Positions 25,941 to 41,244 of a stretch of DNA of 64,000 bases are shown here, piece after piece. The DNA comes from a phage: assembly GCA_024449565.1 (NCBI GenBank), contig GCA_024449565.1_4810.1; one strand, written 5' to 3'. Under the pieces are notes generated by a model that was not told the DNA's origin, did no database searches, and saw only the letters and a list, made by a program, of their open reading frames with translations. Every line of letters starts with the position of its first letter. Within the stretch, counting starts at the first letter, position 1. Both the position numbers and the translations under genes were made by a program.

Positions 25941-26780
25941 ATGGCCGAAGCAATCAAAGTATTATCTAAAGAAGAAAAACAAGCCGCTGCAGCAGAACGT
26001 CGTCGCGTAGCTGAAGAAAAACGTTTGGCTAAAAAGAAAGAAGCCGAAGAAAAGCGCCAGAAGCGCGAACAGGAAAAACAAGCCAAGCGTGAAGAAGCCG
26101 CGCTGAAACGCAAGCAGGCTGCTGACGAGAAGGCTCAGAAGCGTGCTGAAGAAGCAGCTAAGAAAGCTAAAGAGCGTGCAGAAAAGGCCGCTGCTAAGAA
26201 AGCAGAGCGTGAAGCCGCTAAAGCAGCAAAAGAAATCGAAAAGGCAAAGGCTAAAGAAGAAGCCAAGCGCCTGAAAGCCGAGCAGGCTGCGGCCAAGAAA
26301 GCAGAGCGTGATCAAGCCCGTGCTGCAGCGAAGGCCGAAAAAGAGAAGGCCAAAGAAGAAGCTAAAGCGAAACGCAAGGCAGAGCGTGAAGCTGCTAAGA
26401 TTGCGGCGAAAGAAGCTGCAGAACAGCAGAAAGAACAGCGTAAGAAAGAAGCTGAAGAACGTCGCAAAGCCATCGCAGAACGTAAGGCTGCTAAAAAGGC
26501 AAACGGTCAGCGTCGTGCAAAAGCCACTCACTTCATCTACACTGGCAATGGCCTGAGCCAGCCGCAAGAGCATTCCACCCGTGGACGCGTTCTGGCGGCG
26601 ATCAAAGAAGGCGAAGTTGGCGTGGCACAGTCTATCGATGAGCTGGGCGAAAAAGTTAAAGATCAACTGTTTGGCGCTTCCGTTCGCTCCTACCTGAGCA
26701 AGCTGGAAGAGATGGGACACATCGAGTTTGTCGATGTTGAATCCAACGACGATGCTGAAGACGGTGATCAAGCGGAATAA
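25941..26780 (+). CDS. Lys/Ala/Glu-rich low-complexity coiled-coil protein with globular acidic C-terminal domain
   Basis: 279 aa; ~190 residues of KAE-rich repeats (EEKRxAKK, AEREAAK) then ~80-aa non-repetitive acidic domain. Confidence 0.65.
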   Translation: MAEAIKVLSKEEKQAAAAERRRVAEEKRLAKKKEAEEKRQKREQEKQAKREEAALKRKQAADEKAQKRAEEAAKKAKERAEKAAAKKAEREAAKAAKEIEKAKAKEEAKRLKAEQAAAKKAERDQARAAAKAEKEKAKEEAKAKRKAEREAAKIAAKEAAEQQKEQRKKEAEERRKAIAERKAAKKANGQRRAKATHFIYTGNGLSQPQEHSTRGRVLAAIKEGEVGVAQSIDELGEKVKDQLFGASVRSYLSKLEEMGHIEFVDVESNDDAEDGDQAE

Positions 26781-26808: not shown

Positions 26809-26836
26809 GACCCACACTTGATGTGGGTCTTTTTTC
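26809..26836 (+). terminator. intrinsic terminator after the KAE-rich gene
   Basis: gacccaca/tgtgggtc 8-bp stem, loop cttga, then ttttttcg. Confidence 0.6.
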
Positions 26837-26914
26837 GTCTGTACTAAATAGAAATGACTTGTTGCTGTAAATTAATTTAGCTATTATACTTCTCATATCA
26901 CCCACAAAGGAAAA

Positions 26915-27910
26915 ATGAACATGAAACAACCTGTAATGATTATCGGCGGCGGCTTGGCAGGACTTATTACCGCGTGTCACTTCCCGAACTCCATTGTGTA
27001 CGAAGCAGGGGAACGAGCGCCACAGCACAAGGCGCTGCTACGCTTTCGCGGCGAAGAAGTAAGCCGTATTACCGGAATCCCTTTTAAGGCCGTGACAGTT
27101 GACAAGGCTGTGTATTTTCGCGGTAACTACTATAACGACCATTGCCCAATCAACCTTGCCAATATGTATTCGATGAAGGTCACCAATCAGTTTGGTAGCC
27201 GTTCAATCATGAAGCTTAAAACTGCAACGCGTTATATTGCGCCGGACGACTTCTATGATCAGCTTGTCGATAAACTGGGTGATCGCATATTCTTCAATAC
27301 TCCGGTTGACACGCTTTGCGGCTATAGCGAGACGCCAATCATCAATACATCGCCGCTGCCAGTCATGATGAAGCTGGCAGGAATTGATCAAAATATTGAC
27401 TTTTCATTCGATAAAGCAAACATTCGCGTTTACCGCTTTAAGATTAAACGTAAGTGTGAACTGTATCAAACCATTTACTTTCCTGATTGCTCCGTCAGAA
27501 CTTACCGTGCATCAATCACTGGCGACACATTGATCATTGAAACAATTCCTTTGGTTAGCGTAAGTGAAGCCGCAGTTGAAGCCGCTGGCGGCATTACTCG
27601 TTACCGTGACATTAAGTTGCGTGCAGAAGTTGACGAAGTGTTGACGGCCTTTGGTCTTTCATGGAGTGACATTTCTCTCGAAGAAGTTGAAAAGGTCGAC
27701 CAGAAGTATGGCAAGATTGTCGACATTCCGAAAGACTTGCGACACGCTCTACTCCTACAGCTGACCATGGATTTGAACGTATTCAGTGTCGGTCGATTCG
27801 CTACTTGGCGAAACATTTTGCTTGATGACGTTGCTCATGACCTTGTTGAAGTTGAAAAACTCATCAAAGCAAATAACTATCAAAAATTTGCTTATATTGC
27901 TAATAAATAA
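26915..27910 (+). CDS. FAD/NAD(P)-binding oxidoreductase-like protein
   Basis: 331 aa; N-terminal dinucleotide-binding fingerprint VMIIGGGLAGLITA. Confidence 0.55.
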   Translation: MNMKQPVMIIGGGLAGLITACHFPNSIVYEAGERAPQHKALLRFRGEEVSRITGIPFKAVTVDKAVYFRGNYYNDHCPINLANMYSMKVTNQFGSRSIMKLKTATRYIAPDDFYDQLVDKLGDRIFFNTPVDTLCGYSETPIINTSPLPVMMKLAGIDQNIDFSFDKANIRVYRFKIKRKCELYQTIYFPDCSVRTYRASITGDTLIIETIPLVSVSEAAVEAAGGITRYRDIKLRAEVDEVLTAFGLSWSDISLEEVEKVDQKYGKIVDIPKDLRHALLLQLTMDLNVFSVGRFATWRNILLDDVAHDLVEVEKLIKANNYQKFAYIANK

Positions 27911-27918
27911 TTTGCTTT

Positions 27919-27955
27919 CTGCTTCAATGGGCGTATACTTTAATCATTGAAGCAG
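27919..27955 (+). other. 11-bp perfect inverted repeat (possible RNA processing or attenuator hairpin)
   Basis: ctgcttcaatg ... cattgaagcag with 15-nt loop; no T-run. Confidence 0.4.
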
Positions 27956-27976
27956 AACTCATAAGAGGAAACGAAA

Positions 27977-28423
27977 ATGAAACGCATCACTGGAATCGCG
28001 CTTGCCGCAACTGCTATTCTCGGAACCATGTATATGGAAGCGACTGAAGCTGCCATCCGTACTTCCGATTCAATCGCTGTTTACGATTGCGAAGCGATGG
28101 ACGGCAAGACCGCAGCGACGACTGGCGCAACAATTACCACTTACATCGGTGTGAACGAGCAGGAAGGTCTGAATATTCAGATTCAGGGATTCACCGGAAA
28201 AGGCGCCAACCGGACTCCGTGGATGCAGCGTTTCACTTTCGTTCAGCCTCGTTCGACTGGCGACTTTATTAACCTGATTGGTGAAAACCGTTCTGGTGCA
28301 GAAATCTTTACCTCAATGAGTTCTAATAATGAACCAAAGAAAAGTTTTCAGTTGCTTTATAACGCACAATTCGTTTATCATTGCACCTTCTCTGGTGATC
28401 AGCAACTAGTGAATTACCGTTAA
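27977..28423 (+). CDS. secreted protein with signal peptide (148 aa)
   Basis: AAGAGG RBS; N-terminal signal-peptide-like segment MKRITGIALAATAILGTMYMEATEAA; two Cys in the mature part. Confidence 0.6.
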   Translation: MKRITGIALAATAILGTMYMEATEAAIRTSDSIAVYDCEAMDGKTAATTGATITTYIGVNEQEGLNIQIQGFTGKGANRTPWMQRFTFVQPRSTGDFINLIGENRSGAEIFTSMSSNNEPKKSFQLLYNAQFVYHCTFSGDQQLVNYR

Positions 28424-28436
28424 TAGGATAATTAAA

Positions 28437-29246
28437 ATGAAAGTTGAATTAATTCGATACACCCAAGATGCACTTGACCTTTTGCTGGAAACAAAGAACA
28501 CGCGCATGACTGGTAAGCCAGTCTCTGAGATGACAGAATCAGAGAAGCAAGAGCACTGGCGCTACATGCTTGATACAATCAAGTCTCCTTTTGACTTTGT
28601 GGACTATATCTTTGATATCACAGCTGTATCAAAGAACATGACCCATCAGATGGTACGCACACGCACAGGCGCATATCAAGAACGCACCAGCCGCGCTCAG
28701 GAGTCGTCTGCATTTGATGCGATTCGTCCGAAGGCATTCGAGCACCCTTCTGACTGCAATGATGAAAATGCATTTGATGATGTGCACATAAGAAATCACT
28801 CATTGGCAGAGAAGTGGGATGATGCGATGGCCACGATTGACGCTCTATACCAAGAGCTTCGCGCGGCTGGCGCAGAGATTCAAGATGCACGTGCCGTGTT
28901 GCCTTCTAATATGCAAACGCATATCATGGCAAAGTTCAACTTGCGCACTCTACAACAAATGGCCTCTAACCGCTTGTGCACGCGTACTCAAGGCGAGTAT
29001 CAAGAAGTATTCCGTGCAATGGTTGCGGAAGTCCTTAAGGTGCACCCGTGGGCCAATCCTTTACTACAGCCGCAGTGCATCGGTATGGGTAAGTGTGCAT
29101 TTCCTCGTCACGGTAAGGCCCATTGCCCATGGTATCGTGATTGGATGGATACGACTGCACAGCAAGAAGAATTGCGCATTCAGTTTTGGGATGCCGCGCC
29201 AATCACCAACAATCCAGTTGCTAAAGATGGAGTATCAAAAGGATGA
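28437..29246 (+). CDS. thyX: flavin-dependent thymidylate synthase (ThyX)-like protein, divergent active-site motifs
   Basis: 269 aa; SPFDFVDYIFDITAVSKNMTHQMVRTRTGAYQERTSR matches the ThyX core, with RHR as RTR and SPFEH as SPFDF. Confidence 0.6.
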   Translation: MKVELIRYTQDALDLLLETKNTRMTGKPVSEMTESEKQEHWRYMLDTIKSPFDFVDYIFDITAVSKNMTHQMVRTRTGAYQERTSRAQESSAFDAIRPKAFEHPSDCNDENAFDDVHIRNHSLAEKWDDAMATIDALYQELRAAGAEIQDARAVLPSNMQTHIMAKFNLRTLQQMASNRLCTRTQGEYQEVFRAMVAEVLKVHPWANPLLQPQCIGMGKCAFPRHGKAHCPWYRDWMDTTAQQEELRIQFWDAAPITNNPVAKDGVSKG

Positions 29247-30115
29247 GCATTAAAAACAGCGAAATCTTAAATGTATTCGACCTTGACGGAACGCTGTTTG
29301 ATGACCGTTGGCGCTTAGACCGCATTAAGGTGGCAGGTCCGTTGTCAGACTATGATGATTATCACAGCGGTATTGGTTATGATCAGTTCTATCCTCACAT
29401 TGCATCAGCAGTAGAGTCGGCATCTCTTCGCGGTGAGGCGGTTGAATATTGGACTGCAAGGCCAGAAAAATACAGACAAGTGACTTTTGAACGTCTGGAC
29501 AATGTTTTTCCTTTTGATGAATTTACAATCAAGATGAGAGACTATGGCGACAAACGTCCATCAACTATTATGAAATCTGCATGGCTATCGCACGCATTGC
29601 GGCACGGCGATTATCGAATCATCAACGTATTCGACGACCGACAAGACGTACTCGCGCGGATGCAAGATGAAGCATTGTATTATAATTCCGTTGCTCAAAA
29701 TAAAATCGCTTTTACATTTAATCTTTGCAAGGCAGGTGAAGTGGTGCAACAATTAGCAATTGATCCAAGCGCAACAGGGCAAGAAGAGACTAAGGCTGTG
29801 GAAGTTGAACAATCTCCGGCAACTGCCGCCGATATTCTTGATGCAATGGCAGCAACCTTCCGTGAGCGCAACGCTGTCTATGGCGATAACGCTGTGATGG
29901 TAGGTCAGGTTATGCAAGTGCTTTTCCCTAATGGCGTGACGTTGAAAACGCCGGAAGACTACCACATGTGGCATCTGTTCGAGCTTAAGATTGTCAAGCT
30001 TACACGCTTCGCAATCAGCGGCCTGAAGCACGAAGACTCTATACACGATGATGGTGTTTACAGCGCCATGTGTGAACGTCTTGTTAACACCCATAATATT
30101 AATTTCAATAAATAG
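29243..30115 (+). CDS. HAD-superfamily phosphatase-like protein with unknown C-terminal domain
   Basis: 290 aa; HAD motif I FDLDGTLFDD at the N-terminus; start overlaps ThyX-like stop. Confidence 0.55.
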   Translation: MSIKNSEILNVFDLDGTLFDDRWRLDRIKVAGPLSDYDDYHSGIGYDQFYPHIASAVESASLRGEAVEYWTARPEKYRQVTFERLDNVFPFDEFTIKMRDYGDKRPSTIMKSAWLSHALRHGDYRIINVFDDRQDVLARMQDEALYYNSVAQNKIAFTFNLCKAGEVVQQLAIDPSATGQEETKAVEVEQSPATAADILDAMAATFRERNAVYGDNAVMVGQVMQVLFPNGVTLKTPEDYHMWHLFELKIVKLTRFAISGLKHEDSIHDDGVYSAMCERLVNTHNINFNK

Positions 30116-30144
30116 TTTACTTGTGCGTTTCGATGAGTTATATT
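30116..30144 (+). promoter_or_regulatory. sigma70-like promoter (TTTACT - 17 bp - TATATT) within conserved element
   Basis: Shares ~26 nt (GAGTyATAwTTAyyTCATCGAAACGAA) with the element upstream of 37108; overlaps an 11-bp perfect inverted repeat. Confidence 0.45.
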
Positions 30145-30180
30145 TATCTCATCGAAACGAAGTCCAAAAAGGATAAATAA

Positions 30181-30864
30181 ATGAAAAAAGTAATTGTTGT
30201 AACTGGCTGCAATTCCGGTCTTGGTAAGTCCATTTTTGACACCCTTGGCGCTTACGGTCATGAAGTTGTCGGTATTGATTTGGAGAACGGCTATGACATC
30301 CGTAACGCGAAACAGATGAAAGAGCTTCTCTCTCAATACGACGTAGAAGGCTTGATCAACTGCGCTGGCGTCAACTCCAACAACTGGTTCGAAGATGTTA
30401 ACTACGAAGAGTTCAATCGCGTTATGCACACCAACGCCTTCTCTTTCGTCAACACGACTCAGGCCGCGCTGAAAAGTCTTATTGACAACAAAGGTTTTGT
30501 GATCAACATCGTTTCCAACGCTGCGCATATTCCTATGACGTCCAGCTTGTGTTATAATGCTTCCAAGGCTGCTGCGCTCATGATTAGCAAGCAGATGGCT
30601 CACGAGCTTACGCCTAAATACGGGATCACGGTATTCTCTATTAGTCCTAACAAGCTACGTGGTACTGGCATGTCCAAACAGATTGAAGATGCTGTTTGCG
30701 CGACTCGCGGCTGGACTCCTGAATACGCTGCTGAATACCAGAAAAAGGCACTGATGAATGGATTGGAGACTGAGCCGCAAGTAATTGCTGACTTCATTCG
30801 CCATATCTTAATTACGGGCGCATGGCGCTTTATGTCTGGTACTGATATTCCATTTGGGAAATAA
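30181..30864 (+). CDS. short-chain dehydrogenase/reductase (SDR)
   Basis: 227 aa; cofactor motif VTGCNSGLGKS; catalytic YNASK (YxxxK). Confidence 0.75.
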   Translation: MKKVIVVTGCNSGLGKSIFDTLGAYGHEVVGIDLENGYDIRNAKQMKELLSQYDVEGLINCAGVNSNNWFEDVNYEEFNRVMHTNAFSFVNTTQAALKSLIDNKGFVINIVSNAAHIPMTSSLCYNASKAAALMISKQMAHELTPKYGITVFSISPNKLRGTGMSKQIEDAVCATRGWTPEYAAEYQKKALMNGLETEPQVIADFIRHILITGAWRFMSGTDIPFGK

Positions 30865-30867
30865 ATC

Positions 30868-31038
30868 ATGACTATCAAAGTTGTTGTAGAAGTGATTGGC
30901 GACGTAGCAGAAGTGAAGATTGATCAAGAAGGTGTTGGATTTGAAGTAATAAGAATCGAAAACGCAAAGATTAACCACGAGCGCGTCGGTTCCATTGAGA
31001 CTTATTCCATCGAAGGCAACACAGTAATTAATCAATAA
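30868..31038 (+). CDS. possible small protein (56 aa)
   Basis: ATG 30868 to TAA 31036-31038 encodes MTIKVVVEVIGDVAEVKIDQEGVGFEVIRIENAKINHERVGSIETYSIEGNTVINQ. Below track size cutoff. Confidence 0.4.
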   Translation: MTIKVVVEVIGDVAEVKIDQEGVGFEVIRIENAKINHERVGSIETYSIEGNTVINQ

Positions 31039-31058
31039 TATTTAATTAAGGAAACAAA

Positions 31059-31610
31059 ATGCCACATTTTAAAATTGAACAAATCGCCCTGTCAATCCCA
31101 GATGCTCAACGCGCTCAGGACTTCCTGGCTAAAATAGGCCTGACAGAATGGTTCCATGATCACGTTGTTGCTACTGGTCGCGTATTTGAAGCTGATTACT
31201 TTAAAGGTCAGCGCGGCGATTGCACCAATGAAGCTAACTTGCGCTTCAACTATCAGGCTGGCAACGGTACTGATGGCGGCGCTGGTAAGCCTCTTGAGCT
31301 TGAAATCCTTGACTATACAAAAGGTTGCAACTGGATTCGCGAAAACATCGAATACATCGATGCGCACGACAATCAGGTTAGCCATCTTGGTATGCACGTG
31401 ACTGCCGCTGAACTTGCTGAATGGCGCAAGTTCTTTAAAGAAGAAGGCATTCAGGTTGCGCAGGAAGTTGTGACCGACTCTCACACCAACCCAAACATTG
31501 CTGGTCAGCGTCGTTACAACTATGTAATCTTTGATACGCGTGAAATCATCGGCGTTGATTTGAAGTTTATCGTGCGGTTGAATCAAGACGGTACTCCGTA
31601 CACTGCATAA
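31059..31610 (+). CDS. VOC (glyoxalase/dioxygenase-like) family protein, tentative
   Basis: 183 aa; AAGGAAA RBS; N-terminal HFKIEQIALSIPDAQRAQDFLAKIGL resembles the VOC beta-alpha-beta-beta-beta signature. Confidence 0.45.
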   Translation: MPHFKIEQIALSIPDAQRAQDFLAKIGLTEWFHDHVVATGRVFEADYFKGQRGDCTNEANLRFNYQAGNGTDGGAGKPLELEILDYTKGCNWIRENIEYIDAHDNQVSHLGMHVTAAELAEWRKFFKEEGIQVAQEVVTDSHTNPNIAGQRRYNYVIFDTREIIGVDLKFIVRLNQDGTPYTA

Positions 31611-31626
31611 CGAATCTTGAATCTGT

Positions 31627-31651
31627 GGCCGTCCTAATGGGCGGCCTTTTT
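31627..31651 (+). terminator. intrinsic terminator after the enzyme cluster
   Basis: ggccgtcc/gggcggcc stem, loop taat, then ttttt. Confidence 0.55.
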
Positions 31652-31664
31652 GTAGGAGGCCAAT

Positions 31665-32207
31665 GTGTTATTTCTCCCTTATGACTTCGAAACAACAGGA
31701 TTAACCGTGCACCCGAAAGCGCCGCTTGGAATGCAGCCGCGCCCTATTGAATTTGCAGGGTTGTTGACGGACGGCAAAGAGATTCTTGAAACGTTCGAGT
31801 TCATAATTAATCCTGAAATTGTGATTGAAGAAATCATCACAAAGATTACCGGATTGACAAATGAAGACCTTGAGTGCAATCCACCATTCATCAATTTTGT
31901 CCCGCAGCTAAAAGAAATCTTCAAGAAGACGGATGCCACTATCGCGCACAACCATGCGTTCGATAAAAACATTCTTGATTATGCACTACAGCGCGAAGGA
32001 CTTACGCTTGATGATGTTAATTTTCCAGAAATAAACATTTGTACAGTTGAGCAAACCTTGCCTATTTTTGGCCGAAGAGTTAAGCTTCAAGAGCTGTATG
32101 AATTATATTTCGGAAAATATGAACAGAAACACCGTGCATTAGACGACGTAATATTACTGCACAAAGTCTGCCAACAAATTGGCGTATATGACATCTGGAG
32201 TAAATAA
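31665..32207 (+). CDS. DnaQ-like 3-5 exonuclease (DEDDh family)
   Basis: 180 aa; GTG start with AGGAGG RBS; Exo I FLPYDFETTGL, Exo II HNHAFDKNIL, Exo III HRALDDV. Confidence 0.8.
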   Translation: MLFLPYDFETTGLTVHPKAPLGMQPRPIEFAGLLTDGKEILETFEFIINPEIVIEEIITKITGLTNEDLECNPPFINFVPQLKEIFKKTDATIAHNHAFDKNILDYALQREGLTLDDVNFPEINICTVEQTLPIFGRRVKLQELYELYFGKYEQKHRALDDVILLHKVCQQIGVYDIWSK

Positions 32208-37371: not shown

Positions 37372-37619
37372 GCAACAAAGTATTGTTAATTGGTCCGCCA
37401 GCTTGCGGCAAAACGACTAGCGCAAAGAATATTGCTGAAGTCATGGGATTGAATAACATTTACGACATAGGAAAGGGTGGAGAAGACAATTTTAAGTCCG
37501 CACTCAAAGATGACAAGGAAGGTCTTTATGTCACTGTGAAATTACCGCGCGGCATTCGCCGTGAACAATTTGATATTGTAATTGAAGTCAACAGAGGATT
37601 TATCGATGTCAGATATTAA
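37368..37619 (+). CDS. small P-loop-containing protein (83 aa)
   Basis: Walker A LLIGPPACGKTT; too short for a complete kinase or ATPase. Confidence 0.5.
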   Translation: MSNKVLLIGPPACGKTTSAKNIAEVMGLNNIYDIGKGGEDNFKSALKDDKEGLYVTVKLPRGIRREQFDIVIEVNRGFIDVRY

Positions 37620-38163
37620 TTGGGAAGATGATTTGCCGCAGGTTGCTCCTGAGAGCATTCAAGAGCGCCTTGCGCGCTTAGTATCGGAATTGGCAGAACG
37701 CCAAGAAGCTTTGACAGAGCTTGAAGATGAAGCTGATATGCAAAAGCAGCGCATCAGTGAAATCAAAACTGTTCTGCTTCCTGGTGTTATGGATGAGCTT
37801 GGCGTGTCCGAAATCAAGCTTGAAGACAAGACCAAAATCAAGGTCGAGTCAAAAGTGAATGCTTCAATCAAGAAAGAAAACGAATTAAAAGTTTTCGATT
37901 GGCTTGTCAACAACGGTTACGGCGGCCTGATCAAGTCCAGCGTCACGGCTGAGTTCGGTCGCGAAGAAATCGAACAGGCGCAAGAGATTGTTGCCGCACT
38001 GCGTGAAGATGGTGTTGAAGCCACATTGAAACAAGGCGTTCATTCTGCTACACTGAAGTCGTTTGTAAAAGAACAGCTGGAAGCAGGCAATCCAGTTAGT
38101 GAAGATATTAGCGTTTTTGAATACAAAGAAGCTAAAATAACCTTGCCTAAAAGCAAAAAGTAA
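37606..38163 (+). CDS. hypothetical acidic coiled-coil protein (185 aa)
   Basis: Start moved to ATG 37606 (MSDINWEDD...). Confidence 0.5.
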   Translation: MSDINWEDDLPQVAPESIQERLARLVSELAERQEALTELEDEADMQKQRISEIKTVLLPGVMDELGVSEIKLEDKTKIKVESKVNASIKKENELKVFDWLVNNGYGGLIKSSVTAEFGREEIEQAQEIVAALREDGVEATLKQGVHSATLKSFVKEQLEAGNPVSEDISVFEYKEAKITLPKSKK

Positions 38164-38222: not shown

Positions 38223-39083
38223 ATGTCTAAGAAAGAAACTACCGAAGTTGCAGCGAAAAACACCCAGATGTCCGCTATGGCTGATTTTGTCGACATGACC
38301 GATTTTGGCGCTGGTTTTGAAGGTGCCGATGCCGATGCGTATGCCATTCCTTTTATCGTCGTACTGCAAAAGATGTCTCCGATGGTCGACGAAGATGATC
38401 CAAAACACGTGCCTGGCGCAAAAGCTGGTATGCTGTACAACACCGTTACTGGTGAGTTGTATGACGGCAAGAAAGGCGTGCAGATCATCCCTTGTGCATT
38501 CAAACGCACCTTCATCCTTTGGGGCGGTCGCGAGTCCGACGATAAAGGCTTTAAAGGTGAATTCACCAAAGAGCACGTTGATGCAGAAGTCGCGGCAGGC
38601 CGCGCTGTTGAAATCAACGGTAAGGTGTTTGTTCCAGACGAAAACGGCAAAGTGCACGAGAAAAAATCTCCTTACTATGCAGATACACGTAACCACTTCG
38701 TCATTCTGTTGAATGAAGAAACGGGTGAATTTGGCAGCGCCATGTTGTCTTTGACTTCTTCAATGATCAAGCCGTCTCGAATGCTGATGACCGCGCTACA
38801 GCAGAAGAAAGTTCAGACTCCGCAAGGTCTGAAAACGCCGCCGACCTTTATGAACATCGTTCGCATGGGTGCTGCATCCCAGTCCAAAGACGGCAACACC
38901 TGGTCCGTTCTGAAGTTTGAGCTGGAAGGTCTGGTGCAGGACAAAGGTCTGTACGAAGTCGCCAAAGCATTCCACAACGACGTGGTTGGCGGCAACGTTA
39001 ACATTGACCGCAGCAAGCAGGAAGAAGCAAGCGGTGCCGCTGGTCCTGTCAATGAAACTCCGACCGACGCAGAAGAGTTTTAA
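38223..39083 (+). CDS. putative single-stranded DNA-binding or annealing protein (acidic C-terminal tail ending in Phe)
   Basis: 286 aa; C-terminus ...NETPTDAEEF resembles SSB-type acidic tails; position within replication block. No fold-level evidence. Confidence 0.4.
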   Translation: MSKKETTEVAAKNTQMSAMADFVDMTDFGAGFEGADADAYAIPFIVVLQKMSPMVDEDDPKHVPGAKAGMLYNTVTGELYDGKKGVQIIPCAFKRTFILWGGRESDDKGFKGEFTKEHVDAEVAAGRAVEINGKVFVPDENGKVHEKKSPYYADTRNHFVILLNEETGEFGSAMLSLTSSMIKPSRMLMTALQQKKVQTPQGLKTPPTFMNIVRMGAASQSKDGNTWSVLKFELEGLVQDKGLYEVAKAFHNDVVGGNVNIDRSKQEEASGAAGPVNETPTDAEEF

Positions 39084-39140: not shown

Positions 39141-39659
39141 ATGATAGAAAGAATTGTACCGCTCCTGAAGATTCTGGCCCTTGTCGGCGCGTTTGCCGCT
39201 GGATCATACGTTGAAGACCTTAAGCAAACCAACGCATCACTGGCCAAGGATAATCAATATCTGACATCGCTTAATGAGCGTAAGGACAAGATAAATGCAC
39301 TCGAAGAGCAAATTGCAACTTTACAGGTTGAATCGGCATCGGCATATGAGAAGGGTCGCCAGGAAGCGCAACTGGTTGCTGATGACACTATTGCTCGTTA
39401 CAAGTCTGGGAATATCAAGCTGCGCGAGCAACTCAGCTGCTCCCGTGAGTTACTCAGGAGTGTGCCCGACTCTGCGACCACTGGACGCCTCTCTATCCCA
39501 GAAGGAAACTGTGGACTATCAGAAGAAGATGTCAGATTTCTTGTTCAGTTCGCCGCAGAAACAAATCGATTAAAAGAGAAAGTTAATAGCTTGATTGATA
39601 CTTATAATCAGGCTAAAATAAAAATCGATCAATTCAATGCATCAAAGGAAAATAAATGA
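39141..39659 (+). CDS. i-spanin-like protein (Rz-like): N-terminal TM anchor plus coiled coil
   Basis: 172 aa; TM helix IVPLLKILALVGAFAAGSYV then coiled-coil region; contains embedded lipoprotein ORF in another frame. Confidence 0.5.
   Translation: MIERIVPLLKILALVGAFAAGSYVEDLKQTNASLAKDNQYLTSLNERKDKINALEEQIATLQVESASAYEKGRQEAQLVADDTIARYKSGNIKLREQLSCSRELLRSVPDSATTGRLSIPEGNCGLSEEDVRFLVQFAAETNRLKEKVNSLIDTYNQAKIKIDQFNASKENK
39346..39573 (+). CDS. o-spanin-like outer-membrane lipoprotein (Rz1-like), embedded in alternate frame
   Basis: Track ORF 39295-39573; lipoprotein signal with lipobox-like LVTSLGISSC; entirely inside the i-spanin-like gene. Start codon uncertain. Confidence 0.45.
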   Translation: MRRVARKRNWLLMTLLLVTSLGISSCASNSAAPVSYSGVCPTLRPLDASLSQKETVDYQKKMSDFLFSSPQKQID

Positions 39660-40279
39660 AACAGATTTATGCAAACATTCGCCATTGGGCTTCTGACCGT
39701 AACATCATCCAAGGTTGCGACCTTAAGGACCAATACCCGAAGCTTATCAGCGAGTTTGGGGAGTTAACCGACCACGTTGATCAACTCCATGACCTTGTGT
39801 TCTTCGACCCTGAAATTGGCTATACAGAGCAGGCCATCTGTGACTTGCAGGCCGCAATTAAGGACGACATTGGCGATTGCCTTGTTGTGTTGACCATCCT
39901 GGCAGCGCAAAACGGTACTGAAATCGAAAACATTAATGGCGGCGGTTGCGCTGATAAAGGTGCTCACCCTCATTCATTTATCCTTCGCCTGGCAAAGACC
40001 CTTGGACGACTTGGTGATGCTATTGCCAAGAATCAGACCATGGATATTGACGTCACCATCATGGCCGCAGTCGATTACCTTTCCGGCGTAGCTCATGATT
40101 ATGGCCTTCGCTTATCCGACTGTGCGCAAGCGGCCTACGAAGACATCAAGGACCGCAAAGGTGTCATGTACAACGGAACGTTCATCAAATCTACTGATCC
40201 AGCTTATGAGCACTCCTGCAAAATGGTAAAGAAGCTGGAACTTGAAGACCGTGTGATCAGAGAAGTTACAGGACAATAA
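39656..40279 (+). CDS. MazG-like nucleoside triphosphate pyrophosphohydrolase
   Basis: 207 aa; EFGELTDH motif (ExxGEL) typical of all-alpha NTP-PPases. Confidence 0.5.
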   Translation: MKQIYANIRHWASDRNIIQGCDLKDQYPKLISEFGELTDHVDQLHDLVFFDPEIGYTEQAICDLQAAIKDDIGDCLVVLTILAAQNGTEIENINGGGCADKGAHPHSFILRLAKTLGRLGDAIAKNQTMDIDVTIMAAVDYLSGVAHDYGLRLSDCAQAAYEDIKDRKGVMYNGTFIKSTDPAYEHSCKMVKKLELEDRVIREVTGQ

Positions 40280-40281
40280 TT

Positions 40282-41244
40282 ATGACAGCATTAAAACCAA
40301 TGAAGGGTTGCCAACGTAAGCAGATTATCGAGCGCGGCGAAGATGTGCCGCTGCCTTGCGGACTTTCATTCAAGGTCGATGGCATACGCGCAATGGCGTA
40401 TGACAACTTGCCAATGGGCACATCCGGCATGGCGCTGAGAAACGTTCAAATCAAAAAAGAGTTCCTCTTTTTGGGTGAACTAATTCACGGACTTGATGGA
40501 GAGCTAATCGACGGCAATCCAAATGACAAGAACGTCATGCAACAGGCCTATACTGCATGCATGAATACTGATGCAATCACTAACTTTACATGGTGGGTGT
40601 TTGATGACTTCAGCGACCCTGATTTGCCTTTTGAAAAGCGTTATGCAAACTATCGAGCTAGAGTTGCTGAAGTTAATCAACATCTCATCAACCATGGTCG
40701 ACGCCCATTCCTTCGCGCTCTCGAATATCGCAACATCGAAAATATGGAGCAGTACGCGGCAATGCAAATCGAAGCAGACCAGCTTGGCTATGAAGGCTTG
40801 TATGGCAAGTCTTGGACGGGCAAATACAAGCATGGCCGCGCAACGCCAAAGTCACGTGATGTGTGGAAGGACAAGCCGTGGACAGATGAAGAAGGGTTGA
40901 TCATAGACTTCGTTGAGATGATGGAGAACAACAACGAAGCATTCATTGACGAATTGGGTCGCACCAAGCGTTCAAAAGAGGCTGAAGGCTTAGTTGCAAA
41001 AGGATACCTTGGATCATTTGTAGTTGTCAATCCAAAATATGTTGATGAGAAAGGTGAAATGATTCCTTTCCGCGTCTCCGCTGGTTCAATGCCTATGGCA
41101 GAGAGAAAAATGCTTTGGGAGAATCGCGAGAATTATCGAAACAAGTATTTGACATATAAATTCTTTAACTTTGGCATAGTTGACGTGCCGCGCTCTGCCT
41201 TGTATAAGTGCTTCCGTGATATTACCGATATGGAGTATTTTTAA
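40282..41244 (+). CDS. ATP-dependent DNA ligase (nucleotidyltransferase superfamily)
   Basis: 320 aa; motif I SFKVDGIR (KxDG), motif III LDGELI, motif IV YEGLYGK, motif V-like VWKDK. Confidence 0.65.
   Translation: MTALKPMKGCQRKQIIERGEDVPLPCGLSFKVDGIRAMAYDNLPMGTSGMALRNVQIKKEFLFLGELIHGLDGELIDGNPNDKNVMQQAYTACMNTDAITNFTWWVFDDFSDPDLPFEKRYANYRARVAEVNQHLINHGRRPFLRALEYRNIENMEQYAAMQIEADQLGYEGLYGKSWTGKYKHGRATPKSRDVWKDKPWTDEEGLIIDFVEMMENNNEAFIDELGRTKRSKEAEGLVAKGYLGSFVVVNPKYVDEKGEMIPFRVSAGSMPMAERKMLWENRENYRNKYLTYKFFNFGIVDVPRSALYKCFRDITDMEYF

Follow-up and report, generated by a model that had tools for sequence, protein, structure and literature searches.

The window analysed here, a 64,000-nt stretch of DNA, belongs to a Wifcevirus, an E. 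coli myovirus, and contains an operon that we hold, on somewhat better than even terms, to be the Wifcevirus form of a module, found in phages only, for making sugar-derived hypermodified thymidine of the Pbunavirus type, the link being circumstantial. Five of its seven genes, encoding a flavoprotein, a ThyX-clade enzyme, a HAD phosphatase, an SDR and a VOC-like protein, appear from their sequences and distribution to form the module, with the first three as its conserved and phyletically coupled core. The initial annotation had proposed an undescribed pathway for a modified nucleotide or base, and this idea gains circumstantial support from the conserved gene neighbourhood, an odd ThyX, LC-MS data on Pbunavirus and restriction resistance, but its seven-gene unit and its redox-trio core did not hold. 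If the proposal is true, the operon would supply the genes of a pathway for which none has been named so far.

The cluster had been placed at positions 26915-31610, and seven ORFs on the + strand were found exactly there, flanked by two strong terminator hairpins, with the quoted motifs GGGLAG, FDLDGTLFDD and YNASK all present in the translations. The intergenic gaps from gene 1 to gene 7 are 66, 13, -4, 65, 3 and 20 nt, and a Shine-Dalgarno-like purine run precedes each of the seven starts. The upstream intrinsic terminator (26809-26835, + strand), which closes a unit encoding a helicase and a Lys-rich protein, consists of a hairpin at 26809-26829 with an 8-bp stem (GACCCACA/TGTGGGTC) and a run of six T, and the downstream one (31627-31651, + strand) of a hairpin at 31627-31646, with seven G-C pairs in its 8-bp stem, and a run of five T. 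These were the best two terminator-like sites in an 8.5-kb scan, which detected no comparable site inside the cluster; as the scan overall was not enriched (14 sites versus 9.8 +/- 2.9 in shuffles), the weight rests on these two strong hairpins only. The annotation of phage Mansfield has terminators at both corresponding places, upstream and downstream of the cluster. A candidate sigma-70-like promoter with a weak -35 and a good -10 (TTGTTG, 17 nt, TATTAT; 26859-26887, + strand) was read by eye and is missing from the calls of the promoter scan. The layout suggests that the seven genes are co-transcribed. A second hairpin (31643-31661) overlaps the downstream terminator and covers the AGGAGG that precedes the exonuclease gene, which starts with GTG.

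Gene 1 (26915-27910, + strand) encodes a 331-aa FAD-binding protein (phrog_4828) with the fold of UDP-galactopyranose mutase (Glf/UGM), protoporphyrinogen oxidase and amine oxidases, flavoenzymes that are among the closest known systems. It has no match in Pfam, and its assignment as an FAD/NAD(P)-binding protein was confirmed by structure, as an FAD protein. UGM is its best structural match and also the label that the Mansfield annotators gave, by HHpred, to its counterpart, and renalase, an oxidase of NAD(P)H isomers, is among its structural neighbours. The family is phage-only: when 100,044 species genomes were scanned, just three MAG contigs were returned, with ThyX on each. We propose that this protein handles the sugar, or catalyses an oxidation, in the modification pathway.

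Gene 3 (28437-29246, + strand; 269 aa) had been called ThyX-like, in agreement with its match to PF02511 (9e-30), over positions 2-191 of 191. It shares the fold family of the canonical ThyX proteins of T. maritima and M. tuberculosis, and in the alignment with solved ThyX structures all the dUMP-binding Arg, and also the Gln, are conserved. By contrast, the sequence departs from the RHR(X)7S signature: gene 3 shows RTRTGAYQERTSRA in place of the canonical RHRxxSxxxxSxRY, and its score against the NCBI equivalog TIGR02170 is 80.3, below the cut-off of 87.9. Among the module ThyX proteins the His of RHR is replaced by Thr, Ser or Asn in 87 of 87, the Ser of the signature is mostly Thr, the Tyr/Phe that follows it in canonical enzymes is Ala or Val (Ile in one), and a second conserved His, in the SEHA/DSHA segment of canonical ThyX, is an invariant Arg. 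Also unlike canonical ThyX, the module enzyme has a partner flavoprotein at every locus, and tblastn matches of gene 3 with at least 35% identity in a phage database came from the same taxa, with the same counts, as those of the flavoprotein. On these grounds the enzyme represents a distinct ThyX clade, found only where the flavoprotein is found, and we propose that it transfers a one-carbon or alkyl group onto C5 of a uracil nucleotide.

The product of gene 4 (29243-30115, + strand; 290 aa; phrog_4889) is a HAD phosphatase of the T4 Pnkp type, as expected from its motif (HAD_PNKP, 5e-8), and motifs I-IV (D13xD15, T71, K111 and D131D132) are invariant across 43 homologues. Its AF2 model (pLDDT 90) gave the phosphatase of T4 Pnkp (5uj0), the closest solved structure, as the best Foldseek match, and both proteins share a cap-less HAD fold with four catalytic motifs. 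The extra C-terminal domain noticed in the initial annotation is indeed present: the HAD part (residues 1-175) is followed by a linker and a four-helix domain (around 195-280) with the motif R..Y...FP.G...K..R...H.DS..D...Y, related to DUF6378/DUF3310 through weak matches in orthologues, and it stands where T4 Pnkp has a kinase domain, absent here. At several loci the two halves are separate ORFs.

Gene 5 (30181-30864, + strand; 227 aa) encodes a classical SDR, with TGxxxGxG and YNASK motifs and an adh_short match (1e-31) that bears out the earlier call, and its nearest solved structures are FabG proteins (6e-13), a generic likeness. The VOC-like assignment of gene 7 (31059-31610, + strand; 183 aa; glyoxalase/bleomycin-resistance/dioxygenase superfamily) is weak for this protein itself (Glyoxalase_4, E 0.0023, below the cut-off) and stands for its family, in which 20 of 34 orthologues match, the best at 7.5e-6. 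The family has invariant residues, and the candidate metal ligands are Q8/E7, E82, H109 and D167; no relative of solved structure came up in a profile search, and the Mansfield annotators noted InterPro IPR029068 for its counterpart. Both proteins are candidate accessory tailoring enzymes. The remaining two ORFs are confined to this genus. Gene 2 (27977-28423, + strand; 148 aa) begins with a plausible signal peptide (MKR, 17 hydrophobic residues and an A-x-A-like site), has no match in Pfam, PHROG or NCBIfam, and is probably outside the pathway; its HMM matched in Wifcevirus loci only, and five small ORFs fill its slot in Pbunavirus. Gene 6 (30868-31038, + strand; 56 aa), which matches no Pfam or PHROG family, is present in some Wifcevirus loci only, and unrelated small ORFs occupy its slot in other phages.

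Conservation of the neighbourhood in related phages, which had been suggested as a check, extends far beyond the genus. In all the related phage lineages sampled, the module has one order and directly precedes the genes for the exonuclease and Pol III alpha; annotated phages of Serratia, Luteibacter and Xanthomonas show this order too. For co-occurrence counts, IMG/VR flavoprotein loci were grouped into 55 lineages, in which the flavoprotein is followed downstream by ThyX in 43 of 43 and by HAD in 36 of 37; SDR was found in 27 of 36, and of 32 lineages 24 had SDR together with VOC and 7 had neither. The core is also found outside this replication block, in unrelated podophages and in a jumbo phage: in the Cronobacter podophage Ss1 flavoprotein, ThyX and HAD are contiguous, and in a 207-kb Rhizobium jumbo phage they lie within 7 kb, with a HAD whose C-terminal domain is the same (48% identity). 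The triad is encoded by Pbunavirus F8 and 14-1, too. The seven genes do not behave as one unit, since the 148-aa and 56-aa ORFs are genus-specific fillers. Nor is the redox trio (flavoprotein, SDR and VOC) the core, as Pbunavirus, where three proteins of Wifcevirus (SDR, VOC-like and 148-aa) are all missing, still has the modification. ThyX and the phosphatase, which had been seen as ordinary salvage enzymes, both belong to the conserved core with the flavoprotein, and this ThyX is itself not ordinary.

The same synteny admits a second explanation, less probable but a serious one, in which these are replication-support genes that share the replicase operon by descent, the DNA modification being due to other genes. 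ThyX would boost dTTP, the flavoprotein would assist in redox chemistry (returning flavin to its reduced state, for example), HAD would act like Pnkp as a 3'-phosphatase that cleans up DNA ends before polymerase and ligase, and SDR and VOC would be unrelated auxiliary metabolic genes. The linkage of the module to the exonuclease (30 of 31) and to Pol III alpha (29 of 30) is as tight as that among module genes, so synteny may reflect one inherited replication block. As all its substrate-binding Arg are kept, and PF02511 is matched end to end, gene 3 may simply make dTMP; the closeness of HAD to the T4 3'-phosphatase, the label 'FabG-like moron' given to the SDR by database annotators, and the dozens of early genes without assigned function in the genome, which could encode the actual pathway, also fit. 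However, this explanation does not account for the exclusive and constant phage-only flavoprotein partner of this ThyX clade, even in other genome architectures, when ordinary phage ThyX genes need none, nor for the constant replacement of two His and a Tyr in ThyX, nor for the gain and loss of SDR and VOC as a pair.

The chemistry comes from Pbunavirus, a sister genus that shares this genome architecture and carries the flavoprotein-ThyX-HAD core at the same position. In the Pseudomonas therapy phages F8 and 14-1, LC-MS detected a sugar-derived hypermodified thymidine at TG, with derivatives of 362 and 390 u replacing around a quarter of T, described by the authors as tetrose sugar-alcohol and cyclic aldopentose derivatives that differ between the two phages; no biosynthetic genes are named in the preprint (Yee et al. 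2025, bioRxiv 10.1101/2025.03.31.646159). Between F8 and 14-1, the most divergent genes of this region are HAD (81% identity) and the small ORFs between flavoprotein and HAD (78-89%), in contrast to pol, exo and Dda (96-99%).

In the pathway that we favour, whose steps are all inferred, the ThyX-clade enzyme with reduced flavin would attach a one-carbon unit to C5 of a uracil nucleotide as an exocyclic methylene, and this electrophile, besides being reduced to thymine, would be intercepted by a hydroxyl group on a sugar or polyol phosphate. Preparation or oxidation of the sugar would fall to the flavoprotein, HAD would remove the phosphate, and SDR and VOC, as an optional pair, would oxidise and epimerise or isomerise the appended sugar, with the 148-aa and 56-aa ORFs as bystanders; with the modified T in place, phage DNA would be shielded against restriction enzymes. 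Capture of the ThyX methylene intermediate by nucleophiles has been discussed previously, and thymidylate-synthase homologues begin all known pyrimidine hypermodification pathways. An objection to this pathway lies in the TG specificity, which suggests that the modification is made on DNA: ThyX is known solely as a mononucleotide enzyme, and no recognisable DNA-binding or sequence-reading domain was found in the module proteins.

The thymidine hypermodifications of ViI, M6, PaMx11, PhiW-14 and SP10 (Lee et al. 2018, 2021, PMC8989533) share with the Pbunavirus relatives a sequence-dependent partial replacement of T in virion DNA, start from a thymidylate-synthase-superfamily enzyme, and include in their tailoring an FAD oxidoreductase working on DNA, FAD enzymes being known to act on T adducts in DNA (PMC8989533). 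They differ in using a ThyA-type dUMP hydroxymethylase, a P-loop 5-hmdU DNA kinase and an aGPT-Pplase amino-acid:DNA transferase, none of which was detected in this phage, and in appending amino-acid-derived groups (PMC8989533), whereas here the synthase is of the ThyX type and the adduct of the relatives is sugar-like. Phages with glycosylated cytosine (T4, glucosyl-5hmC; RB69 and DLP3, arabinosyl-5-hydroxycytosine; RL38J1) also make the attachment point with a thymidylate-synthase homologue of altered chemistry and encode sugar-handling enzymes nearby, UGM in RL38J1 (PMC13326640). A search for a glycosyltransferase, a nucleotidyltransferase or a kinase found none, which counts against the favoured pathway. 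The UGM likeness of gene 1 and the HHpred label of its Mansfield counterpart, together with an SDR, an epimerase-like protein and a phosphatase, enzymes typical of sugar tailoring, and a signal-peptide protein in the operon, would also suit a nucleotide-sugar or rare-sugar pathway (UGM-like mutase, SDR reductase, VOC epimerase and sugar phosphatase) whose product would serve a purpose unrelated to DNA, such as changing the glycans of the host surface or yielding a secreted compound connected with the signal-peptide protein, a reading that we consider improbable.

Restriction data bear on the favoured pathway, DNA hypermodification. Wifcevirus phages have been described as restriction-resistant "without any known protection", being insensitive to all the Abi and RM systems tested but EcoP1, which eliminates Bas98-100; these plate at around 1 on both EcoRV and EcoCFT_II, with values of 0.27-0.92 on EcoRI, and the Bas99 genome has 19 EcoRI and 92 EcoCFT_II sites. 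The EcoCFT_II site, which k-mer counts indicate to be CACAG/CTGTG, contains two TG, and TG is absent from that of EcoP1 (AGACC/GGTCT). Resistance at the first and sensitivity at the second point to the DNA itself, and match the resistance of Pbunavirus DNA at TG-containing restriction sites. As EcoRI and EcoRV sites have no TG, a TG-only modification cannot explain resistance to either enzyme; EcoRI cuts F8 DNA, whereas Wifcevirus phages, in which the modification is predicted, plate almost normally on it. More improbable still is a counter-defence module unrelated to DNA modification that destroys or rebuilds a small molecule of host immunity (for example, a nucleotide-derived signal, a compound related to NAD or dNTPs of a depleted pool), as the broad insensitivity to Abi and RM systems, the renalase likeness of gene 1 and the presence of phosphatases and oxidoreductases in known phage counter-defence pathways could suggest, because no anti-defence family was matched in Pfam, PHROGs or NCBIfam, small-molecule metabolism does not explain resistance to type II enzymes, which act by cutting the DNA itself, and the split between CACAG and AGACC points to DNA.

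The window covers the greater part of a genome of around 68 kb that belongs to a Wifcevirus, a myovirus of E. coli/Shigella, and the 4.9-kb region studied here showed 92-95.5% identity to 29 Wifcevirus records, with ManiWeber/Bas99 as the top match. Translation recovered all the ORFs that the initial annotation had described at 26915-31610 on the + strand, which encode a flavoprotein, a 148-aa protein, a ThyX, a HAD protein, an SDR, a 56-aa protein and a VOC-like protein (genes 1 to 7). Successive ORFs are spaced by 66, 13, -4, 65, 3 and 20 nt, and a Shine-Dalgarno-like sequence precedes all seven starts. The terminators proposed to bracket the cluster, at 26809-26835 and 31627-31651, were the two strongest terminator-like hairpins in an 8.5-kb scan, and both carry a terminator annotation by the curators of phage Mansfield. 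As the scan as a whole was not enriched (14 sites against 9.8 +/- 2.9 in shuffled sequences), weight is given to these two hairpins alone. At 26859-26887, visual inspection showed a sigma-70-like TTGTTG-17-TATTAT that the promoter scan did not call, so that, with the scan unenriched, co-transcription of the cluster can be reasonably inferred rather than taken as a result.

Two observations concern the borders. The downstream terminator hairpin (31627-31646) overlaps a second hairpin (31643-31661) through a common GGCC 3' arm (window 31627-31665), and this second hairpin holds AGGAGG, the ribosome-binding site of the exonuclease gene, whose start codon is GTG; the hairpins are mutually exclusive and might link termination with the expression of exonuclease and polymerase. 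Upstream, the gene at 25941-26780 (+) encodes a Lys/Glu/Ala-rich protein of 279 aa (pI 9.6) with KAEEAAKK-type repeats, which also produce a spurious antisense ORF of 269 aa (25962-26771, -). Its conservation with the Pbunavirus homologue, annotated as a structural protein, is limited to the C-terminal 85 residues or so, and the myovirus-type loci all have it ahead of the flavoprotein gene.

The flavoprotein encoded by gene 1 gave zero Pfam or NCBIfam matches at E <= 1, fell outside the GLF family (PF03275) by sequence, and is a member of phrog_4828, a PHROG without assigned function. Among solved structures, searches with the single sequence and with a 31-sequence profile found nothing past the GxGxxG segment, which the profile matched only in amine oxidases with E values of 0.27 or weaker. 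The AF2 model, built from 40 homologues, reached a pLDDT of 86.8, and an N-terminal beta-alpha-beta unit with GxGxxG together with the overall fold place the protein among the FAD enzymes with two dinucleotide-binding domains (UGM / PPO / amine-oxidase type). The protein collection contains 1913 members of the family, which is present in 362 phage records, 292 of them Pbunavirus; the others include Wifcevirus, phages of Serratia, Pantoea, Xanthomonas, Xylella, Luteibacter, Burkholderia, Erwinia, Aeromonas and Salmonella, podophages of around 40 kb of Cronobacter and Vibrio, a 40.6-kb Ralstonia phage and Rhizobium jumbo phages. The family is essentially phage-only, since a scan of one genome per species across 100,044 species of bacteria and archaea gave only three MAG contigs, all of them phage-like and all with ThyX adjoining the flavoprotein. 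As these contigs were all that was found, the attempt to borrow a function from cellular relatives failed.

Gene 3 matched the whole Pfam profile Thy1 (PF02511) with 104.3 bits (cut-off 24.8; 9e-30), and scored 80.3 bits against the NCBIfam equivalog TIGR02170, just below its cut-off of 87.9. At the RHR site, the solved ThyX proteins from M. tuberculosis, C. glutamicum and T. maritima show the motif RHRxxS[YF]xxxSxR[YF] and the window protein reads RTRTGAYQERTSRA, in such a way that RTR(X)7T stands in place of the RHR(X)7S signature. The signature His is absent from all 87 ThyX proteins of flavoprotein loci (Thr in 69, Ser in 15, Asn in 3), the second signature Ser is replaced by Thr in 66 of the 87 and kept in 20, and where canonical enzymes have an aromatic residue following the last Arg, 86 have Ala or Val and one has Ile. 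Alignment further places an invariant Arg of this clade at the His of the SEHA/DSHA segment of canonical ThyX. In the T. maritima ThyX structure, both of the replaced histidines contact FAD. The clade keeps Q71, R74, R76, R86, R152 and R179 (numbered as in the window protein) without exception, and these align to the dUMP-binding Gln and Arg residues of solved ThyX proteins, which we take to be Q75, R78, R80, R90, R147 and R174 in T. maritima numbering. Phage-database matches at 35% identity or higher had the same taxa and the same numbers as those of the flavoprotein, so that, judged from these matches, the RTR-type clade is phyletically coupled to the flavoprotein; the next tier, of actinophages and archaeal viruses, showed only 25-30% identity.

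Gene 4 encodes a cap-less HAD phosphatase of the T4 Pnkp type (PF25109, 33.5 bits against a cut-off of 27.6), with HAD motifs I-IV (DxD, T/S, K, DD) formed by D13, D15, T71, K111, D131 and D132, all invariant in 43 sequences. A sequence search of solved structures gave nothing useful; the AF2 model (pLDDT 90) had the T4 Pnkp phosphatase 5uj0 as top fold match, in a search run with the whole-protein model whose matches fell on the HAD part. Despite the Pnkp annotation in databases, a P-loop kinase domain was absent in Pfam, NCBIfam and the model. After a linker, the model shows a C-terminal four-helix bundle with the conserved pattern R..Y...FP.G...K..R...H.DS..D...Y. Its orthologues gave weak matches to DUF6378 and its Cronobacter phage counterpart matched DUF3310 (4e-9), two families for which a literature search returned no functional data. 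Assignment of this domain as a MazG-like NTP pyrophosphatase was unsupported, the conserved acidic EExxE-type motif being missing. In many metagenomic relatives the HAD and the helical domain are separate, slightly overlapping ORFs (comparison loci L042, 12290-13107; L051-L054; L073; L078; L087; L092; and others), and a second HAD-like ORF lies between flavoprotein and ThyX in L023, L025, L026, L028, L030, L032, L033 and L040. The HAD proteins of the Serratia and Luteibacter phages, with 453-474 aa, have an extra N-terminal part.

Gene 5 encodes a classical SDR, with TGCNSGLG (TGxxxGxG), YNASK (YxxxK) and an adh_short score of 110 bits against 26.6 (1e-31). Its nearest solved structure is FabG (6e-13), a generic match that is uninformative on the substrate. 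Two roles, as a FolM/PTR1-like pterin reductase and as a regenerator of NADPH for ThyX, were considered and rejected: neither gave a specific signal, and the nearest families are generic FabG and glucose dehydrogenase. Gene 7 reached 18.6 bits against Glyoxalase_4, under the cut-off of 27 (E 0.0023), and 20 of its 34 orthologues matched this family at E <= 0.05 (best 7.5e-6); its profile search found no solved relative. Residues Q8, E82, H109 and D167 are invariant and lie at the places expected for VOC metal ligands, as candidate ligands. Gene 7 thus probably belongs to the VOC superfamily, and its candidate ligand set (Q/E, E, H, D) looks more like that of the glyoxalase I / epimerase type; this set would disfavour a dihydrodiol dehydrogenase / extradiol dioxygenase pair for the SDR and the VOC-like protein. 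Gene 2, whose product has a signal-peptide-like N-terminus, and gene 6 gave no Pfam, PHROG or NCBIfam match.

The conservation of the module, which we define as flavoprotein, ThyX and HAD with or without SDR and VOC, was analyzed with HMMs from annotated examples run on 80 IMG/VR flavoprotein loci (55 lineages at 90% identity), counting for each feature only contigs long enough to judge it. As these loci are the closest 80 of 360, the sample leans to one replication-module type. Downstream of the flavoprotein gene, ThyX was found in 43/43 lineages, HAD in 36/37, the exonuclease in 30/31, Pol III alpha in 29/30, SDR in 27/36 and VOC in 25/32, and a Dda helicase lies upstream in 19/40. SDR and VOC occurred together in 24 of 32 lineages, were both absent from seven, and one stood alone in a single lineage. 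The five genes keep an identical order in the annotated Serratia WR01, Luteibacter Pluto and Xanthomonas FoX6 phages; Pbunavirus has flavoprotein, ThyX and HAD, and lacks SDR and VOC. Conservation of the neighbourhood in related phages, suggested in the initial annotation as a check, therefore holds for five genes and their order, and genes 2 and 6 were found in Wifcevirus only. The adjacency of the replicase genes is as constant as that among the module genes, and the synteny could be no more than the inheritance of a single replication block. Two independent cases were found: Cronobacter podophage Ss1, where flavoprotein, ThyX and HAD-DUF3310 are contiguous, and a 207-kb Rhizobium phage, where flavoprotein, ThyX and HAD lie within 7 kb among unrelated genes and the HAD shares the C-terminal domain of gene 4 type with 48% identity.

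In two unrelated phages, homing-endonuclease genes (HNH_3/NUMOD3; Seg-like) are directly beside module genes, at 9280-9726 of L007 (Cronobacter phage Ss1 orf31) and 7909-8559 of L008 (Rhizobium phage). The early region of Serratia phage WR01 (L010, 2350-2850) encodes a 166-aa protein annotated as 'family 3 glycosyl transferase domain-containing', which denotes the anthranilate phosphoribosyltransferase / nucleoside phosphorylase family; we noticed no counterpart in the window.

The presence of the core triad (flavoprotein, ThyX and HAD) in both F8 and 14-1 may connect the module to a chemically described modification. These Pbunavirus phages, long thought unmodified, were examined in a 2025 preprint by the Bondy-Denomy and Weigele laboratories, and LC-MS of their DNA showed thymidine derivatives of 362 and 390 u at around one quarter of the T, located at TG sites (bioRxiv 10.1101/2025.03.31.646159). 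The hypermodification is sugar-like and is sensed by defence nucleases, and the preprint states that Pbunavirus lacks the genes previously implicated, leaving the biosynthetic genes unnamed (bioRxiv 10.1101/2025.03.31.646159). By mass arithmetic, 390 equals 5-hmdU (258) plus a pentose residue (132), and 362 equals 5-hmdU (258) plus a tetritol residue (104), an isomer of a C5-linked 1-deoxypentitol on dU. Between F8 and 14-1, which carry different adducts and were compared over 3.7-7.2 kb of each locus (L098 from F8, L097 from 14-1), polymerase, exonuclease, Dda and flavoprotein are 96-99% identical, the HAD is 81% identical and the small ORFs from flavoprotein to HAD are 78-89% identical; the HAD difference includes the repeat length in an acidic linker. 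Divergence at HAD and small ORFs would fit the differing adducts, a weak but consistent indication.

For Wifcevirus itself, the available evidence is a restriction phenotype. Plating efficiency is around 1 on EcoRV, EcoCFT_I and EcoCFT_II and 0.27-0.92 on EcoRI, and zero plaques were obtained on EcoP1; Bas99 has 19 EcoRI, 4 EcoRV, 92 EcoCFT_II and 89 EcoP1 sites (BASEL data). The BASEL authors noted EcoP1_I as the exception to the resistance, despite a site number equal to that of the resisted EcoCFT_II. In the rebuilt Bas99 and Bas98 genomes our k-mer counts matched exactly the published EcoRI, EcoRV and EcoP1 numbers, and CACAG/CTGTG was the sole 5-mer counted 92 times in Bas99 and 93 in Bas98, so by inference CACAG would be the EcoCFT_II site. 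CACAG/CTGTG contains two TG dinucleotides and the EcoP1 site AGACC/GGTCT none; for this reason a TG-specific T modification like that of Pbunavirus would predict exactly the split between these two type III systems, EcoCFT_II being resisted and EcoP1 lethal, that puzzled the BASEL authors. T in TG context makes up 26.3% of the T in the window. A TG-only modification fails as the cause of all the restriction data, as the EcoRI and EcoRV sites are without TG.

On balance we lean, with caution, towards the involvement of the module in making a thymidine hypermodification. Every known pyrimidine hypermodification pathway starts with a thymidylate-synthase homologue of altered chemistry, and capture by nucleophiles of the exocyclic-methylene intermediate of ThyX has been discussed (PMC8989533, PMC13326640); the tailoring of DNA-borne T adducts by FAD enzymes is also known (PMC8989533). 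From these precedents and the adduct masses, a sequence of steps can be proposed, each held with much lower confidence than the involvement of the module itself. The ThyX-clade enzyme would put in the C5 methylene, part of which would be trapped by the hydroxyl of a sugar or polyol phosphate; the UGM/PPO-like flavoprotein would activate or oxidise the sugar, the HAD would take off the phosphate, and in the phages having both, the SDR/VOC pair would oxidise and epimerise the sugar.

The thymidine pathways of Lee et al. 2018/2021 use, in contrast, a ThyA-type dUMP hydroxymethylase, a P-loop 5-hmdU DNA kinase and an aGPT-Pplase transferase. None of these was found in the seven proteins, in ten other unassigned window ORFs of at least 125 aa or in the annotations of Mansfield, Bas98 and Bas99, and the same proteins, ORFs and three annotated genomes gave no glycosyltransferase, kinase or nucleotidyltransferase. 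A tentative reading, in our judgement less likely than not, is a third, new route, in which a ThyX-family enzyme and a UGM-like flavoprotein would both use covalent flavin-N5 chemistry to attach a sugar-derived unit at C5 of uracil/thymine, without ThyA-type hydroxymethylase, DNA kinase, aGPT-Pplase or glycosyltransferase. The HAD would dephosphorylate and SDR plus VOC would diversify the sugar. On this reading the module, which occurs in hundreds of phages, the Pbunavirus therapy phages among them, would be a portable cassette that accompanies phage replicases of the Pol III alpha type.

Against the module as the source of the modification we weighed the dozens of small early genes that have no assignment. 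The TG specificity suggests chemistry on DNA; to our knowledge ThyX acts on mononucleotides only, and no DNA-reading domain is visible among the module proteins. The main rival, rather doubtful in our judgement, keeps the genes ordinary: ThyX as a dTMP synthase, the flavoprotein as a redox helper, the HAD as a DNA-end phosphatase, and SDR and VOC as unrelated auxiliary genes. Less likely than this, and improbable, is a nucleotide-sugar pathway serving non-DNA targets; a small-molecule counter-defence role, also behind the ordinary-gene explanation, appears more improbable still.

Hypermodification of phage pyrimidines around a thymidylate-synthase homologue is already known as a kind of system. 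In the involvement that we favour, the proposed parts, which described pathways lack, are the ThyX-type synthase, the UGM-like flavoprotein and the Pnkp-type HAD with its DUF6378-like domain, and there is a fair chance of new chemistry in the module. Our literature search, with subscription journals outside its scope, found no paper in which the hypermodification of these phages is tied to ThyX or to a UGM-like protein. The analysis directly names candidate genes for the open question of how Pbunavirus, among the most used therapeutic phages against Pseudomonas aeruginosa, makes its modification, and the candidate, a three- to five-gene module with a non-canonical ThyX and a flavoprotein family that lacks a functional assignment, is testable by knockout or co-expression. 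If it is correct, a ThyX-based entry point and a new flavin chemistry would join the known routes of DNA-base modification, the restriction resistance of Wifcevirus would be explained, and its enzymes could serve to produce sugar-decorated DNA. Flavoprotein plus RTR-type ThyX would then be a sequence marker by which hypermodified genomes could be predicted among over 360 sequenced phages and numerous metagenomic contigs.

Further downstream in the window, the genes at 39656-40279 and 40282-41244 (+) match in size and position two genes annotated in Bas99 and Mansfield, for the MazG-like pyrophosphatase and the ATP-dependent DNA ligase respectively; a phage-encoded MazG could be relevant to how nucleotide pools are controlled when a modified base is made. 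The unassigned proteins encoded at 37582-38163 (+) and 38223-39083 (+) matched the Pam3 gp33-like family (DUF7307, 3e-37) and the Pam3 gp34-like Pfam family (2e-85), respectively, and sit between the helicase genes and the lysis/MazG/ligase block.
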